UHGV virus genome: UHGV-0069723 | Direction: 5' to 3' (one strand) | Length of the DNA: 41,341 nucleotides | Origin: a virus | Part shown: positions 2,668-34,578 of the stretch, piece by piece | How positions within the stretch are numbered: position 1 is the stretch's first letter | Layout of the letters: each line of letters opens with the position of its first letter | Made by a program: the position numbers and the translations under genes | The notes under the pieces: generated by a model | What the model was told of the DNA's origin: nothing | The model's input: only the letters and a program-made list of their open reading frames with translations | Databases searched by the model: none

Positions 2668-2916
2668 TCATGCAGCGTTGCTCACGGGACGATATACACG
2701 TTGCTGAACAGGAGGCTTTTTACCCTGGAACTCTGCCGGGCTTGCTGCCTGACGTTCATCAAGCCAACGCTCAACTTCATCACGGTTCCATGCGCAGCGT
2801 TTATCGGTGATATACCAGCGTTTAGGAAATTCCCCTGCGCGCTCCATACGGTCGATAGTGCTCCATGACAGTGGCACCACCGCCAGGAGTTCTTTCTTAC
2901 CTAATGCACCTTTCAT
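2668..2916 (-). CDS. AlpA-family HTH regulator / excisionase-like protein
   Basis: 82 aa; LSWSTIDRMERAGEFPKRWYITDKRCAWNRDEVERWL matches the AlpA/Xis-type HTH pattern; located between int and the recombination genes. Confidence 0.8.
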   Translation of the reverse strand: MKGALGKKELLAVVPLSWSTIDRMERAGEFPKRWYITDKRCAWNRDEVERWLDERQAASPAEFQGKKPPVQQRVYRPVSNAA

Positions 2917-2965
2917 GAATACCTCTCTTGGTTGCAGTGCGGCGCACGTGGCGCCGCGGTGGTGG

Positions 2966-3988
2966 TTACTCGAATTCTGGACGCATATCGTTAAGCGTCA
3001 TCATGAATTTTTGGTGATATTCATCACCGAGCTTTTCAGCCATGGTGTTAATTTCATTTTCAGCGCGCTTGAACATCGTTTTTGCATCTTCAGCAGATGG
3101 ATCCAGGCTATTAAGTATCGCGATGATATATTCTCGAGCTTCTTCTCGTTCTGAATCTGAAATTGGCGACAGGTGTTGACGCTCATCGTCAACTACGGAA
3201 TATTCACCAGTGATAACAGCTGCGTTATCTTGGCTAAGTCCAGCTTCAGCGCGCTCATCCATAACAACAGCCTTCTGCATTTCAATAGAAACAGGAAGAT
3301 ATTTGAACAGTCGGCGAATTACTGTTTTTTTAGCCATCTCATCGAAGTGATCAACCCATGGGCCACTGCTACCGGCTTTGCTCAGTGCACGAACTTTCTC
3401 AACGTCTGCCCGGCTCATAACTTCAAATTGGACTCCGCCATCTTTCAGTCGTGCAACGGCGTAAACGTGCGTTAATTCTCCGCGGTCACCTGTTTCGCAA
3501 GGTAAATGCTCGAGCGTTTCTTCCAGGCCGTATGAGTAGCTGAATTTGTCGTTTGTATGTACGGTACGAGCCGAGATACTCAGGATCTGCCCAGAGCGGC
3601 GGGCAAGGTCAATCATTCCGCGATAGCCGATAATCAGCTGTGCTTCTGTAGATACGGTTTCCCATCTTCCATTTACTTTCTGGCGTTTGTCGAACGGTAT
3701 CAGGTAAGCGTGTCCAAGAGCTCCGCCTGGTTCAAGACCCAATTGGGCACATTGCATAATTGCCCCCAGGAAGCTGGCTTGGTCGCATGATGCAAGTTTT
3801 GGAACCTTTCTGATCTCTGTGGTTGCTATGCGCGCCAGACGGTCTGCTGTCATGTGCTTTGGAAGTGCCAAAGCCATCTGAGCTTTAATTTTTGGGTCTG
3901 CCAGAAGTCCGGCCAGAGTTGTTGGTTTCTCATTATGATGTGCAACTTGGTTACCGGTAGCCGCTGCCTTAAGTGCATTGATAGACAT
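2966..3988 (-). CDS. recT: RecT-family single-strand annealing recombinase
   Basis: 340 aa; RecT-like core (SFLGAIMQCAQLGLEPGG...AYLIPF...); immediately downstream of the YqaJ-type exonuclease gene. Confidence 0.9.
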   Translation of the reverse strand: MSINALKAAATGNQVAHHNEKPTTLAGLLADPKIKAQMALALPKHMTADRLARIATTEIRKVPKLASCDQASFLGAIMQCAQLGLEPGGALGHAYLIPFDKRQKVNGRWETVSTEAQLIIGYRGMIDLARRSGQILSISARTVHTNDKFSYSYGLEETLEHLPCETGDRGELTHVYAVARLKDGGVQFEVMSRADVEKVRALSKAGSSGPWVDHFDEMAKKTVIRRLFKYLPVSIEMQKAVVMDERAEAGLSQDNAAVITGEYSVVDDERQHLSPISDSEREEAREYIIAILNSLDPSAEDAKTMFKRAENEINTMAEKLGDEYHQKFMMTLNDMRPEFE

Positions 3989-5367: not shown

Positions 5368-5444
5368 TTACCGTTGAGGTAATAATTATGCTTATTTGGT
5401 TTGGTGTCAATAGATATGAGTTAAAAAAATTACCCGTAAGGTAA
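5368..5444. promoter_or_regulatory. Left operator region: two perfect TTACC-N5-GGTAA sites (5368-5382, 5430-5444) flanking the leftward promoter
   Basis: TTACCGTTGAGGTAA and TTACCCGTAAGGTAA; on the minus strand a perfect TTGACA -35 (5405-5410) lies between them. Confidence 0.55.
5382..5410 (-). promoter_or_regulatory. Candidate sigma70 early-left promoter (PL-like)
   Basis: Minus-strand TTGACA, 16-17 bp spacer, TAATTA/ATAATT -10; about 35 bp upstream of the first leftward ORF. Confidence 0.4.
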
Positions 5445-14038: not shown

Positions 14039-14115
14039 GAACTGGAAGCAATGAGTTATGCCTTCCGTGGCTGTACGGGTTTACAGCATGAAGTCATCGC
14101 AATGGCGTCCTGCTG

Positions 14116-14201: not shown

Positions 14202-14278
14202 TGGTGTGGCATGCAGGATTCGAACCTGCGACCAACCGCTTAGAAGGCGGTTGCTCTGTCCAACTGAGCTAATGCCAC
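14202..14278 (-). tRNA. tRNA-Arg (anticodon UCU, reads AGA), phage-encoded, CCA encoded
   Basis: Hand-folded cloverleaf: acceptor GTGGCAT/ATGCCAC, D-arm GCTC-AGTTGGACA-GAGC, anticodon stem ACCGC/GCGGT with loop CTTCTAA, T-arm GCAGG-TTCGAAT-CCTGC, discriminator A plus CCA; 77 nt. Confidence 0.9.
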
Positions 14279-14600: not shown

Positions 14601-14615
14601 TTACCCGAAGGGTAA
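14601..14615. promoter_or_regulatory. Perfect TTACC-N5-GGTAA site upstream of the head gene block
   Basis: TTACCCGAAGGGTAA, about 90 bp upstream of the first late-strand ORF. Confidence 0.5.
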
Positions 14616-31401: not shown

Positions 31402-31905
31402 TTATACTATTGAGTTTAATGATATCTTGTCCTTAATATCATTAAGTTTGCCATATATCTTTTTTGCATAAAAATCAGCCTCCTCAATAAACCTCGACTT
31501 CTCATTATCAGGCATATTTTTGAAGGTATGTGCACATGTATATTGAGAGTAGTATTTGTGAAATTCTTGATACGCATTATTGAGTTCTTGTAAGTCTTTT
31601 TTATACTCAGGAAGGTATATGTTTATTAGCATTTCCATCGTTTGCAACGGATTCGCTCTTGATACGTCAAATTTACTATCAGAGTGGTATCTGGCATTTT
31701 TTACGAAATTGAGAATGGTAATTGTGCTTGAATCTATGACTTTTTTAGTAAGTATACAATTTATAAATAATTGCTCGCGTTTATCCCTTAATATTTTTTG
31801 TCGCTCTAATCTTATGCTGTTTTTGTATCCTTGTCCTGCATTTATATAAGTGGAAACTATAGCAATAACTGCACCTATCAATGCGCCTAAGATAGTATTA
31901 TCCAT
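31402..31905 (-). CDS. Membrane-anchored hypothetical protein (cassette gene C)
   Basis: 167 aa from ATG 31905 with AGGTGG RBS; one N-terminal hydrophobic helix (NTILGALIGAVIAIVSTYI) then a Lys/Tyr-rich soluble domain; visibly AT-rich; no motif I recognise. Confidence 0.6.
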   Translation of the reverse strand: MDNTILGALIGAVIAIVSTYINAGQGYKNSIRLERQKILRDKREQLFINCILTKKVIDSSTITILNFVKNARYHSDSKFDVSRANPLQTMEMLINIYLPEYKKDLQELNNAYQEFHKYYSQYTCAHTFKNMPDNEKSRFIEEADFYAKKIYGKLNDIKDKISLNSIV

Positions 31906-31930
31906 ATAAGCCACCTAAACTGCGTAAAAT

Positions 31931-32794
31931 TTATTTTCTGCCACTTCTGTAGTATATGTTGCGACCATTTTTGGTCACATTAACAACATGACCCTTTGTT
32001 TCTACTTTGTTATTTGTTGCCTTATATACTTCAAAGTCAAACCATGATATATGACTTATTTCGTCTATAGATACCATAATTTCTAGACCTTGAACTTTCT
32101 TTTTGCTTATCCCTTTTATCGCAGCACTGCGCTTAATTTGGATTTCACCTGGGTAAGCGTTTGTAAATGTAACAGATAAATTTTCTTTGTTTCTGTACCC
32201 TGACATTAAAGGAACAAAAGATATGTGTTGGTGTGGCCCTTGATTTTCCGTTGGCTCACCAGAACCATTTATTATTCCAACGTATACTTTATTTGATGAT
32301 AAAGTAATTAACATTGGTTTCTTAGGATCTGATTCGATTGCATCAAGCAATAGCAAATCTAAAGAACCCTGGGAGTACGTTTTTCGCAATACCCTAGCTT
32401 TCATTGCCTCTGATATTTTGTCATAAATATCACGTTTATAAAAACAACCTAAAAGAAGATCTTTTAGCCAAACAAAAGATACATAACACAAAGAGAAGCA
32501 AATTGATGTGACTGACAGAAGAAGTAGCCACATGTAAATTCTATCTGTTTCTGGTTTTGACGTTACATTAAAAGTTTCCACCATATCGTGAACTAGGTGA
32601 AAATCAGGATATTTATATTTTATAAATGCGGCAATTATTACCGAAGCAACAAGGCAATATGTACCTAATGCAGCTACTTTCATATAAAGAAGCTGGCCTT
32701 CATGTCGGTATAAACGGAAATAATGATACTGGTTAGCGGTTATCATAATATAACCACTAACCAGAATGGGGATAATTAGAAGAGCTAACAACAC
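31931..32794 (-). CDS. Polytopic membrane protein with C-terminal soluble domain (cassette gene B)
   Basis: 287 aa; three to four hydrophobic segments in the first ~125 aa; probable GTG start overlapping gene A's stop by 1 nt; visibly AT-rich; no motif I recognise. Confidence 0.65.
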   Translation of the reverse strand: MLLALLIIPILVSGYIMITANQYHYFRLYRHEGQLLYMKVAALGTYCLVASVIIAAFIKYKYPDFHLVHDMVETFNVTSKPETDRIYMWLLLLSVTSICFSLCYVSFVWLKDLLLGCFYKRDIYDKISEAMKARVLRKTYSQGSLDLLLLDAIESDPKKPMLITLSSNKVYVGIINGSGEPTENQGPHQHISFVPLMSGYRNKENLSVTFTNAYPGEIQIKRSAAIKGISKKKVQGLEIMVSIDEISHISWFDFEVYKATNNKVETKGHVVNVTKNGRNIYYRSGRK

Positions 32795-33003
32795 TATTTC
32801 CTTACAGTGGCAAGATCCTGTTTAACGATTGCAGCAGCGAGACGACGCATCTCCTTAACCTCAGGAAGCTCAGAAATTTGCTGTGATGAGATATACACAC
32901 CACCACGCTTGTTAACCTGCGCTGACGCCGGAACTTCTGCATTTTTTGCCTGAGGGCTGGGTGCATTATCCCTCGTTTTTGTACGAGCGAACCAAAATCC
33001 CAT
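32794..33003 (-). CDS. Small hypothetical protein (cassette gene A)
   Basis: 69 aa; strong GGAGGAGA RBS; ordinary GC unlike B and C; promoter-like TTGCAG-17-TACTAT and an operator site directly upstream. Confidence 0.5.
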   Translation of the reverse strand: MGFWFARTKTRDNAPSPQAKNAEVPASAQVNKRGGVYISSQQISELPEVKEMRRLAAAIVKQDLATVRK

Positions 33004-33029
33004 ATCTCCTCCTCATGTAAACACATGGT

Positions 33030-33044
33030 TTACCTTTAAGGTAA
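33030..33044. promoter_or_regulatory. Perfect TTACC-N5-GGTAA site overlapping the cassette promoter -10/+1
   Basis: TTACCTTTAAGGTAA on the plus strand; on the minus strand it abuts the TACTAT -10 candidate (33044-33049). Confidence 0.5.
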
Positions 33045-33114
33045 TAGTACGCTATTCACCCCCAGTCTGCAATCGTACAGAATTATTTAAAGGCACATCC
33101 CTGTGCCGCCGCTG

Positions 33115-33810
33115 TCAGAAGAACCCTGCTTTGTCGTTGATGTATTCCGCGTGGGTCTGGATATCACGCAGGCATTTACTCACACCGACGATGTAGCAGA
33201 ACATGGTGGTCAGCTCCGCCGCCGCGCCCGATACGTCGTGCCCGTCGTCCTGTAACTGGTTCAGCAGATTCATCAGCAGTGAGTTCTCCGTCAGGCCGAG
33301 AACACCAGACGGCGAGTGAATCAGGCTGCGGTAGCCGGGCTTCAGCGGGGCGCTGTAGGTTTTGTTCTCTATCTTCATCGCCTGCATTACTGCTGACGCC
33401 GTGGCGTTGGCTACCTGGTCGGCAACCATCTTTATGCGTTCTTCCTGCGGGAGCGAGTTTTTAATGTAACTTCCGGTGCGGCGGATCTGAGGAAGTACTT
33501 CGCCTGTAACCCATTTGCGAAAGCGGTAGGGGATAGTGCCTGGTGTCACCGCATCGCGGCAGCGGAGGATCAGTGTGTAGAGGCCTGACTCGGAGATGAT
33601 GATCGATTCTTGCTCACCGCCAGGGGTGTCGGTTGAAGCGACGCCCTTCTCATCATCATCAAGTTTTCGAACAGCATCTCGATGGTTTGCTATGCCTATA
33701 GCCCGACAAACATCTGAAGCGATAAACCATGGCTCACCATTAATGACGATTACCCGTATATCGGCTTGGGATTCGAAAGAAAAAATGGACGTGCTTTTTG
33801 TAGCTGTCAT
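33115..33810 (-). CDS. Bro-N domain antirepressor-like protein
   Basis: 231 aa; N-terminal FSFESQADIRVIVINGEPWFIASDVCRAIGIANHRDAVRKLDDDEK...GLYTLILRC...WVTGEVLPQIRRTGSY fits the Bro-N pattern; C-terminal domain is paralogous to the small ORF at 34126-34383. Confidence 0.85.
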   Translation of the reverse strand: MTATKSTSIFSFESQADIRVIVINGEPWFIASDVCRAIGIANHRDAVRKLDDDEKGVASTDTPGGEQESIIISESGLYTLILRCRDAVTPGTIPYRFRKWVTGEVLPQIRRTGSYIKNSLPQEERIKMVADQVANATASAVMQAMKIENKTYSAPLKPGYRSLIHSPSGVLGLTENSLLMNLLNQLQDDGHDVSGAAAELTTMFCYIVGVSKCLRDIQTHAEYINDKAGFF

Positions 33811-34079
33811 AGTGGTTACCTTTTAGTCTGGTTAATCACCACTACCGACGCCAATCGGTTGGTGGTGAACTGTGCAGGGTTGGCGTAACCGGCTAAAAGG
33901 ACCCGGCGCACCTTTCGGTGCCCCCACACAGCCCACCATAATACGAATGTGGCCGTGCTATACGCATAAAAAAACCGCTTGCGCGGTGAATGCGCCTTTT
34001 AGTAATCCGGGACGCCAATCCCGGCACTGGATTTTGCCAGTGCCCGATTACTATGGCACAAGAGGAGTGCGATGTAAAT

Positions 34080-34094
34080 TTACCGCAAAGGTAA
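34080..34094. promoter_or_regulatory. Perfect TTACC-N5-GGTAA site upstream of the Bro-N gene
   Basis: TTACCGCAAAGGTAA, within the ~315-bp untranslated region between the two antirepressor-type genes. Confidence 0.45.
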
Positions 34095-34125
34095 ATATAA
34101 GCACTCCACTTGGTAATTGCAAACC

Positions 34126-34383
34126 TTATCTGGTTTGTTTTCGTAATTGTTCGGCACAATAGTCGAGATGTGTTTGTAGATCCTGCATAGACATCTGTGA
34201 GCTGGTGACGTAGTTAATCAGTGCAGTCAGTTCGGCAAGTGGGCCATCGACATTAAATCCATCCTTATCGAGATCCCGGAGTAATTTCATCAAGTGCGAT
34301 CCCTCCACCAGTGACCTGACGCCTCCCGGCGTGTGAATCCTTTCGGTAAATCCGTCTTCCAGTGGATAGTGATACTGCTGCAT
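34126..34383 (-). CDS. Small antirepressor-like protein (paralog of the Bro-N protein C-terminal domain)
   Basis: 85 aa from ATG 34383 (MQQYHYPLEDGF...); HTPGGVRSLVEGSHLMKLLRDLDKDGFNVDGPLAELT...DLQTHLDYC aligns with HSPSGVLGLTENSLLMNLLNQLQDDGHDVSGAAAELT...DIQTHAEYI of the Bro-N protein; LexA box in its promoter. Confidence 0.6.
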   Translation of the reverse strand: MQQYHYPLEDGFTERIHTPGGVRSLVEGSHLMKLLRDLDKDGFNVDGPLAELTALINYVTSSQMSMQDLQTHLDYCAEQLRKQTR

Positions 34384-34404
34384 CTTATCTTCTCCATGTA
34401 ATAA

Positions 34405-34420
34405 CTGTATATTTATACAG
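34405..34420. promoter_or_regulatory. LexA (SOS) box CTGTATATTTATACAG
   Basis: Matches CTGT-N8-ACAG with an AT-rich spacer and perfect dyad symmetry; 22 bp upstream of the small antirepressor-like ORF, overlapping its likely -10. Confidence 0.7.
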
Positions 34421-34459
34421 TAGCAAATAATTTGTTTGCTATCCAGCACGTTTTGCAAA

Positions 34460-34474
34460 TTACCCGAAAGGTAA
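34460..34474. promoter_or_regulatory. Perfect TTACC-N5-GGTAA site upstream of the LexA-boxed promoter
   Basis: TTACCCGAAAGGTAA, about 40 bp distal to the LexA box. Confidence 0.45.
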
Positions 34475-34578
34475 TATCTATTCGTATTTACAGTCTTTCT
34501 ATCCATATGTGGTTTTTCAGGTAATAGAATAACCAGATATGCGGCGCAACGGGTGCTGCGACTATCTGGAGATTTAAC

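Follow-up and report, generated by a model that had tools for sequence, protein, structure and literature searches.

The UHGV virus genome UHGV-0069723, a stretch of 41,341 nucleotides that was analysed whole and is called the window here, is an E. coli prophage of the phiV10/epsilon15 type, the short-tailed phages of the genus Uetakevirus, and harbors an antirepressor locus whose features all lie on the minus strand and are thus read from right to left in the window coordinates (Table 1). The locus comprises a short gene, ant, preceded by a LexA box, and a longer gene for a protein with a Bro-N domain, and the gap of 315 bp between these two genes contains the RNA elements isrK and C4. Around these features, a 1.8-kb region matches the chromosome of E. 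coli FDAARGOS_1257 at 100% identity and the phages ZX5, phiV10 and TL-2011b at 95-99%, and at least 80% of the locus was found in 89 of 5,426 complete E. coli genomes. We propose, with a probability of roughly 0.8 for the explanation as a whole, that this locus is the antirepression switch of epsilon15-like podophages and consists of two adjacent units, one in which host LexA would gate a stand-alone antirepressor (Ant), and another in which the C4 and IsrK RNAs would gate a fusion of Bro-N with an Ant-like domain. LexA-gated antirepression of a non-cleavable repressor is already established for Uetakevirus, including by a crystal structure, and the only unreported aspect that we found is the composite of the two units under one operator specificity, for which we found no earlier description as a whole in the literature searched.

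The product of the small ant gene matches the 'Anti-repressor protein' of PDB identifier 5D50_E with an E-value of 4e-47 and about 88% identity over 83 aligned residues. In this entry, Ant is solved together with the repressor (Rep) of Salmonella phage SPC32H, and these two proteins are the closest solved homologues of Ant and Rep of the window. A tblastn search with small Ant also retrieved a homologue labelled 'ant' in the GenBank records of SPC32H and SPC32N. The Ant proteins of the relatives all begin at a conserved MQ(R)QYH, and an extended open reading frame (ORF) of 126 aa starting from 34506 was rejected since it would place both a Rep operator and the LexA box within coding sequence. 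Pfam offers no family for small Ant, the only match being a sub-threshold one to DUF724, and PADLOC returned no matches for either antirepressor or for the adjacent AT-rich genes.

An earlier sequence-only reading of this locus, made without database searches, had taken the 85-aa ORF for a truncated paralog of the C-terminal domain of the neighbouring Bro-N protein. The paralogy is well supported, with 31 of 74 residues identical (42%; E-value 2e-15) over residues 150-223 of the Bro-N protein, and both proteins match PHROG 450 as well as chain E of PDB 5D50. The notion of truncation, however, has the logic backwards. The small ant gene has diverged from its counterparts in SPC32H, epsilon15 and Tyrion at 64-67% of synonymous but only 8-9% of non-synonymous sites, giving a ratio of non-synonymous to synonymous divergence (pN/pS) of 0.13-0.14 (0.13 against SPC32H), and it is the sole Ant-type gene in epsilon15, SPC32H and BUCT554. 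Because of these two observations, we read small ant not as a remnant or decaying copy but as the genus-wide, stand-alone Ant gene under strong purifying selection, and its occurrence alone in those three phages makes small Ant the primary, conserved form and the Bro-N protein the likely derived fusion. A reading in which the small ORF is a non-functional remnant and the Bro-N protein is the SOS-driven inducer, expressed by read-through from the LexA-controlled promoter, draws on the alignment of the small protein with only the last third of the Bro-N protein, on the lack of a predicted intrinsic terminator between small ant and isrK, and on the promotion of lytic growth by the over-expressed Bro-N protein of ZX5. 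The purifying selection, the solitary occurrence of small ant in three phages and the ~88% identity of its product to a protein crystallised with Rep contradict the first half of this reading, while the isrK terminator, which intervenes before the Bro-N gene, and a ~0.9-kb insertion in TL-2011b contradict the second, and we consider it very improbable.

The near-consensus LexA box upstream of small ant, which the sequence-only reading had pointed out, is borne out by closer inspection: the 20-mer differs from the LexA consensus at 2 positions and is the sole match with three or fewer mismatches in the 41 kb, with none in 100 shuffles. In a position-specific scoring matrix (PSSM) derived from 18 LexA sites of E. 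coli, a check which that reading had suggested, the box scored 26.5 bits, higher than all of the training sites (12.6 to 26.0 bits) and the best score in the window, where the runner-up reached 11.7 bits. Three further matches to CTGT-N8-ACAG (at 14071, 18613 and 35585) were rejected as LexA sites as none attains 12 bits; two score about 11-12 bits and the third falls outside the six best, and with such low scores they look like chance occurrences. The box lies at the same position in the E. coli, Salmonella and Enterobacter relatives, where the CTGT and ACAG halves are kept and the inner 8 nt are variable, and in the Klebsiella relatives it has one mismatch, ATGT in place of CTGT. The box of the window aligns column for column with that of SPC32H. 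Phages SPC32H and SPC32N differ at 2 positions in the 3.8-kb locus, and one of these is a C-to-A change that converts ACAG to AAAG in the homologous LexA box. This mutation in SPC32N reportedly (Kim and Ryu, 2013) results in constitutive Ant and precludes stable lysogeny.

The predicted ant promoter was recognized by conservation, as its hexamers and their exact 17-nt spacing are kept across the E. coli, Salmonella, Enterobacter and Klebsiella relatives (TGGAAA and TATATG in the latter) and the spacer sequence varies. Given the conserved TGGATA and TACTGT, the LexA box would fall over the -10 element and the start site, so that the overlap with the ant -10 that had been suggested from the sequence stands as a prediction from conserved hexamers. 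Two other candidates were discarded, viz., a -10 within the LexA box (TATAAA), which is not conserved in phiV10 or SPC32H, and a -35 (TTGCAA) beside the operator, for which no conserved -10 occurs within 16-18 nt. Since the box is situated in a 195-bp divergent intergenic region, it might instead control the tail-fibre gene (34579, plus strand). However, the end of the box is only ~20 nt from the ATG of ant as against ~160 nt from that of the tail-fibre gene, all relatives keep it at the same distance from the ant ribosome-binding site, and the box mutation of SPC32N is, reportedly, tied to constitutive Ant, all of which render control of the tail-fibre gene in place of ant extremely improbable.

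The predicted target of Ant is Rep, a two-domain helix-turn-helix (HTH) repressor encoded some distance away in the window. Pfam detects HTH_3 at residues 106-147 and a weaker HTH-like match (YdaS_toxin) at residues 21-61 of Rep, and no Peptidase_S24, the C-terminal half being an HTH_3-like domain; the two HTH domains and the lack of an S24 domain had been correctly noted from the sequence. Rep matches the 'Repressor' of PDB identifier 5D50_A with an E-value of 3.5e-42 over residues 1-190, and is 53% identical to SPC32H Rep in its N-terminal part and 39% in its C-terminal part. Induction by RecA-stimulated cleavage of the repressor as in lambda, with the LexA box being incidental, would fit the mitomycin inducibility of ZX5 (PMC9782041), which agrees with either mechanism, but it sits poorly with a Rep that lacks Peptidase_S24 and has the non-cleaved SPC32H Rep as its closest solved homologue, and with a LexA box that is conserved and far stronger than chance; we give it hardly any credence. 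Thus, homology to SPC32H, through PDB 5D50 and the aligned LexA box, supports the proposal of the sequence-only reading that induction proceeds via a LexA-controlled antirepressor and not via cleavage.

The motif TTACC-N5-GGTAA occurs 10 times in the window against an expectation of 0.01. Four sites lie beside rep, two after the gene (5368 and 5430), one between rep and a cro-like gene (6142) and one with a single mismatch (6190), and because the motif clusters beside rep and is annotated as repressor-binding in the GenBank record of epsilon15, its assignment as the repressor operator of the genus holds. As had been observed earlier, each antirepressor unit has such a site upstream, TTACCCGAAAGGTAA ahead of small ant and TTACCGCAAAGGTAA ahead of the Bro-N unit. 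The attendant suggestion that both LexA and the phage repressor act at this locus is upheld in that the motif is the Rep operator and that the site at 34080 has repressing geometry, but not for the site at 34460, which probably does not silence the ant promoter since its centre lies near -57 of the predicted start. The latter operator is kept at the same position in 9 relatives, with the homologous epsilon15 site annotated 'repressor' in GenBank; it resembles distal operators elsewhere in the genome, and SPC32N, too, retains it. LexA would hence be the effective gate of ant, because the 34460 operator is not at a repressing position and SPC32N retains this operator despite its reported phenotype. 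A search for a promoter overlapping the 34460 operator found only weak, non-conserved hexamers on both strands. An operator half-site at 34510-34533 (TTCTATTACC on the ant strand, CAGGTAATAGAA on the plus strand) is separated from the 34460 operator by ~50 bp, closely precedes the tail-fibre gene, and is invariant across the E. coli and Salmonella relatives; it may belong to the control of the tail-fibre promoter.

The first unit has close counterparts in the genus. The Ant/Rep/LexA switch of SPC32H is reportedly described by Kim and Ryu (2013, J Virol) and by Kim et al. (2016, PNAS), with PDB identifiers 5D50 and 5D4Z. SPC32H is of the same genus, its Ant is ~88% identical to that of the window, its Rep is homologous, with two domains and without a peptidase, its LexA box occupies the corresponding place, immediately ahead of the ant ribosome-binding site, and its operator has the half-sites TTACC and GGTAA and is located 54 bp upstream of the LexA box. 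It differs in having no isrK, C4 or Bro-N gene, with ant alone between the tailspike and structural genes. According to a review that cites Kim and Ryu (2013), cleavage of LexA in SPC32H leads to synthesis of Ant and inhibition of the repressor (PMC7380047), and another paper states that tetrameric Ant breaks apart the DNA-binding tetramer of Rep (PMC9638917). In epsilon15 (NC_004775.2), gp19 is homologous to small Ant, and TTACC-N5-GGTAA sites with a repressor-binding annotation are scattered over the same places, some of them in pairs with a spacing of 62 bp; the comparison also takes in gp38 (Kropinski et al. 2007). Epsilon15 differs in that its gp19 is annotated as hypothetical and in that it has no Bro-N/C4 unit. 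At a more general level, the arrangement is akin to that of GfoA, GftA and GfhA of the Gifsy phages, Tum of 186 and AntC of N15, where the repressor is likewise non-cleavable and is bound by a small protein under LexA repression (PMC3121763), but no sequence relationship to these proteins was seen. The Gifsy antirepressor genes follow a dinI homologue (PMC3121763), whereas in the window there is no ORF in the ~20 nt between the LexA box and the ant ATG, and the dinI-linked arrangement was not found.

The sequence-only reading described features that are all present at the locus, but it overlooked the two RNAs governing the Bro-N gene, which define the second unit. Both isrK and C4 score well above their Rfam gathering scores (Table 1), and a c4-a1b1 match (RF03163) that overlaps isrK falls just under its own (45.1 against 46.7 bits). 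The isrK element ends in an intrinsic terminator with a stem at 33987..33974 followed by a run of T. The a' and b' loops of C4 are perfectly complementary, over 8 and 7 nt respectively, to a1 and b1 in isrK and to a2 and b2 in the leader of the Bro-N gene, where a2 includes the Shine-Dalgarno sequence AAGG, 8 nt before the Bro-N ATG. Among the relatives these pairings fall into three classes: the window, phiV10 and TL-2011b (a' CCTTTTAG with CTAAAAGG; b' ACGCCAA with TTGGCGT), Tyrion and KpST512 (a' CCTTTGTAG with CTACAAAGG; b' AGACCAA with TTGGTCT), and Kp4865 (a' CCTTTGTAG with CTACAAAGG; b' GTCTCAA with TTGAGAC). The changes in C4 are compensated at both target copies, which is strong evidence that the pairing matters; the exception is the a1 copy in the isrK of Tyrion, which was below the 7-nt threshold for a perfect match. 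The 37-codon ORF that overlaps C4 is annotated as 'ash family protein' in phage ZX5, but matches neither a PHROG nor a protein family. The isrK-C4 segment by itself is ~81% identical to a segment in many Shiga toxin (Stx)-converting phages, and in one of these, PA28 (1800-2700), it precedes a gene labelled 'putative antirepressor' within the nin region, from which we conclude that the RNA cassette is exchanged among phages of unrelated types whose antirepressor genes differ.

Two promoters precede isrK. The -10 of the upstream one abuts the operator at 34080-34094, which extends from about -7 to +8 of this promoter and would thus be placed in the standard repressing geometry ahead of the Bro-N unit; from this geometry, we infer that in the lysogen Rep keeps the upstream promoter, at least, switched off. 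The operator ends 1 nt before the -35 of the second promoter, the isrK promoter, whose sequence is kept in the Enterobacter and Klebsiella relatives, and an operator precedes isrK by exactly 51 nt in each of the four relatives with isrK on the plus strand of the locus (TL-2011b, Tyrion, KpST512 and Kp4865). In phiV10, the operator before isrK forms the centre of a perfect 41-bp palindrome (~2435-2475; GGAGTGCTTATATTTACC GCAAA GGTAAATATAAGCACTCC), and the spacer is 3 nt shorter, so that the TTTACA -35 is lost.

Table 1. Coordinates of the antirepressor locus, of Rep and of associated regulatory features in the window (positions on the 41,341-nt stretch)
Feature	Coordinates	Strand	Details
ant promoter (predicted)	34417..34445	-	-35 TGGATA 34445..34440, 17-nt spacer, -10 TACTGT 34422..34417
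Rep operator TTACCCGAAAGGTAA	34460..34474		Upstream of small ant; centre ~57 bp before predicted start site
LexA box AACTGTATATTTATACAGTA	34403..34422		Core CTGTATATTTATACAG 34405-34420; overlaps predicted ant -10 and start site
ant, stand-alone antirepressor, 85 aa	34126..34383	-	GGAG ribosome-binding site 34392-34395, 8 nt before ATG
Upstream unit promoter	34094..34122	-	TTGCAA, 17 nt, TATATT; -10 abuts operator
Rep operator TTACCGCAAAGGTAA	34080..34094		~-7 to +8 of upstream promoter; ends 1 nt before isrK-promoter -35
isrK promoter	34050..34078	-	TTTACA, 17 nt, CATAGT (TG-extended); predicted start at first isrK base
isrK / c4-a1b1 RNA	33968..34043	-	Rfam RF01394, 77.9 bits (gathering score 50)
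isrK b1	34018..34012	-	TTGGCGT
isrK a1	34002..33995	-	CTAAAAGG
C4 antisense RNA	33858..33943	-	RF01695, 77.7 bits (gathering score 45), full-length match
C4 loop a'	33900..33893	-	CCTTTTAG
C4 loop b'	33886..33880	-	ACGCCAA
37-codon ORF overlapping C4	33816..33929	-	Stop 5 nt before Bro-N ATG; coding uncertain
C4 target in Bro-N leader	33819..33854	-	b2 TTGGCGT 33854..33848; a2 CTAAAAGG 33826..33819
Bro-N antirepressor, 231 aa	33115..33810	-	Bro-N residues 17-107; Ant-like C-terminal domain ~148-229
Rep operator 33030-33044 and orf69 promoter	33030..33072	-	TTGCAG, 17 nt, TACTAT (33072..33044)
Rep, two-domain HTH repressor, 194 aa	5502..6086	-	Predicted Ant target
Early-left promoter	at 5368		TTGACA, 17 nt, AATTAT; shared operator-promoter design
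Promoter before 8553			Shared operator-promoter design

The Bro-N protein itself has a clear Bro-N domain (Pfam PF02498; E-value 2.3e-21) and a C-terminal domain that matches PDB identifier 5D50_E (E-value 1.9e-13) and PHROG 450 (E-value 6e-36), with no ANT/KilA-C or P22_AR domain found in this part by Pfam at E-values up to 0.1. Full-length relatives of this fusion are present in only 18 phage records. One of these is vB_EcoP_ZX5 (ZX5), whose locus is 98.6% identical to that of the window, with small Ant annotated as a hypothetical protein in the phage record, and whose ORF4 is 99.6% identical to the Bro-N protein. In the ZX5 paper (PMC9782041), ORF4 is the antirepressor and ORF21 the repressor; over-expression of ORF21 blocked lysis, over-expression of ORF4 took the lysogen titre from 1e9 to 1e6 (~1000-fold) and lowered repressor transcription by 75%, and mitomycin C raised the lysogen from 1e7 to 1e9 PFU/ml. 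The term 'sRNA' does not occur in its text, and the passages considered here treat SOS only in general terms and make no mention of small Ant, the LexA box or the RNAs (PMC9782041). The Bro-N protein of phiV10 is shorter (annotated coding sequence of 585 nt) and, according to the same paper, only 39% similar to ZX5 ORF4 (PMC9782041).

The C-terminal domain of the Bro-N protein carries a motif, DGHDVSGAAAEL (within 33115-33300), that is identical in the Klebsiella-type stand-alone Ants (for example, at 2595-2855 of the locus of Klebsiella phage ST512-KPC3phi13.3), where small Ant of the window has DGFNVDGPLAEL. The sharing of this motif hints at a different target preference, and the fused Ant-like domain may derive from, or target, a different Ant/Rep lineage. 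This observation bears on a further explanation, namely that the Bro-N/C4 unit is an anti-immunity or heteroimmunity device like immI of P1 and P7 and operates outside the phage's own induction, with the Ant of an infecting phage attacking the repressor of a related resident unless a matching C4 is supplied. Beyond the Klebsiella-type motif, which is unlike the window's own small Ant, it is favoured by the three C4 specificity classes with compensatory targets among otherwise similar phages, a hallmark of P1/P7 heteroimmunity (PMC12197685), and by the action of Gifsy antirepressors in trans on other prophages (PMC3121763). However, an operator for the phage's own Rep is placed in the unit where it would repress, and all relatives conserve it, which argues that the unit is wired into the regulon of its own phage, and ZX5 ORF4 affected the lysogeny of ZX5 itself. 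A heteroimmunity device would, moreover, be compatible with the first unit as the SOS trigger, and so would not displace it. We regard this explanation as unlikely, though not negligibly so.

In its layout, the second unit combines elements of two known systems. The isrK-orf45-anrP-isrJ region of Gifsy-1 likewise has a promoter, an isrK with a leaky terminator, a short ORF over a processed RNA and an antirepressor-like gene, and the 37-codon ORF of the window is the positional analogue of orf45 (PMC4825925). In Gifsy-1, IsrK pairs with the short-ORF region and, in trans, increases translation of the downstream antirepressor-like gene 140-fold, and its terminator is leaky (PMC4825925). Gifsy-1 is, however, a siphovirus with another repressor context and its account does not mention LexA (PMC4825925), and the stop of orf45 overlaps the start of anrP (AUGA), whereas the stop of the window ORF is 5 nt upstream of the Bro-N start. 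The immI operon of P1 and P7 shares with the window a C4 RNA, an upstream a1b1, a downstream a2b2 at a ribosome-binding site, a specificity set by the loops and an operator for the repressor at the operon promoter. In P1, C4 is processed from the operon transcript by RNase P. In these phages, C4 blocks synthesis of the antirepressor and the loop sequences determine heteroimmunity (PMC12197685). The differences are that the window has no icd, only the 37-codon ORF overlapping C4, that its a2 overlaps the ribosome-binding site of the antirepressor gene itself, and that its antirepressor is a Bro-N fusion and its repressor is unrelated to P1 C1.

The two units are separable, because other genes are inserted between them in TL-2011b and in one Klebsiella relative. 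The gap between small ant and isrK is an insertion hot spot in the relatives: TL-2011b has an insertion of ~0.9 kb (2880-3968) with an ORF on the opposite strand and an extra operator, and the Klebsiella phage ST512-KPC3phi13.3 has two same-strand small ORFs (2918-3404) with a TTACC-N5-GGTAA site of their own ahead, which by eye look like HicB/HicA.

Several points weigh against the proposed two-unit switch. Because of the insertions just described, the system cannot depend on transcription that continues from the ant promoter into isrK, and an obligatory coupling of the two units by such read-through was rejected. The hexamers of the ant promoter were not called by a generic consensus promoter scan and were recognized by conservation instead. 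The effect of Rep on the isrK promoter could be either repression or activation. The operator at 34460, at about -57, is too distant to explain repression, and could serve the divergent tail-fibre gene. As Rep is only ~39-53% identical to SPC32H Rep, the pairing of Ant with Rep is here a prediction from homology. Similarly, the over-expression data from ZX5 bear only indirectly on any binding of the phage's own Rep by the Ant-like domain of the Bro-N protein.

DNA damage leads to the cleavage of LexA. We propose that, in the first unit, host LexA occupies the near-perfect SOS box that covers the ant -10 and start site, and that its removal upon DNA damage would, as in SPC32H, permit synthesis of the 85-aa Ant. 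Following the same precedent, Ant would bind Rep and free the TTACC-N5-GGTAA operators, thereby derepressing the early and late operons. The second unit would be a cassette similar to P1 immI, with a Rep-operated promoter, isrK and its leaky terminator, C4, and the gene for the Bro-N/Ant-domain protein, in which translation would be blocked by pairing of the a' and b' loops of C4 with a2 and b2 at the ribosome-binding site of the Bro-N gene. IsrK is likely able to compete for C4 since it carries both target sequences. Judging by operator geometry, loss of Rep would fire all Rep-operated promoters, including that of the isrK-C4-BroN unit, and, by analogy with Gifsy-1 and P1, the second Ant-domain protein would accumulate as IsrK and the target RNAs outcompete C4. 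The balance of C4 and IsrK would limit synthesis of this antirepressor during the establishment of lysogeny and may, as P1 and P7 do, add a further immunity specificity that is based on RNA.

For the members from E. coli, Enterobacter and Klebsiella we tentatively suggest a two-tier switch with C4-class RNA immunity, in which repressors of related prophages may be targets in trans of the Bro-N fusion. In the first tier, the LexA-gated small Ant would fire first; in the second, loss of Rep, possibly together with read-through that raises IsrK as an a1b1 decoy, would unlock the Bro-N fusion. The three C4 classes would then add a heteroimmunity of the P1/P7 kind to an operator specificity that these phages have in common. 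Alternatively, the second unit may just as well be an anti-immunity device against related prophages.

Elsewhere in the window, the Rep operators reveal a recurrent design. Four promoters share it, with the -10 ending on the first T of TTACC and the operator covering about -7 to +8, and two of the four have a second operator 62 bp upstream. These pairs, exactly 62 bp apart, are at 5368-5382/5430-5444 (early-left) and 8473-8487/8535-8549 (before 8553), with the proximal operator covering the start site and the distal one near -69; the corresponding pairs in epsilon15 are at 32555/32617 and 35907/35969. Looping by a Rep tetramer would be compatible with such a distance. Another operator (14601-14615) follows a tRNA-Arg gene (anticodon TCT; 14202-14278, minus strand) located among the head genes. 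The promoter at 33072..33044 drives the AT-rich genes orf69 and orf287 downstream of the Bro-N gene. These belong to a block at 31402-33072 (minus strand) with 30-35% GC against ~50% in the flanks, which encodes orf69, a protein of 287 aa whose N-terminus is hydrophobic (PHROG 3630) and a 170-aa ORF, and which has no PADLOC or Pfam matches. The block resembles an accessory ('moron') cassette that has come under the control of Rep.

The window yields no new principle, and the practical value of the analysis lies in better annotation. Small ant is labelled 'hypothetical' in such E. coli prophages, and the LexA box, the ten Rep operators and isrK/C4 are unannotated; in the one study from E. coli, that of ZX5, the Bro-N protein was the only one of these elements to be tested, as far as the passages considered here extend. 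The tandem of a protein-gated and an RNA-gated antirepressor, together with three C4 classes, provides a compact system for the combination of SOS input with antisense immunity, and it could show cross-talk of antirepressors between co-resident prophages.

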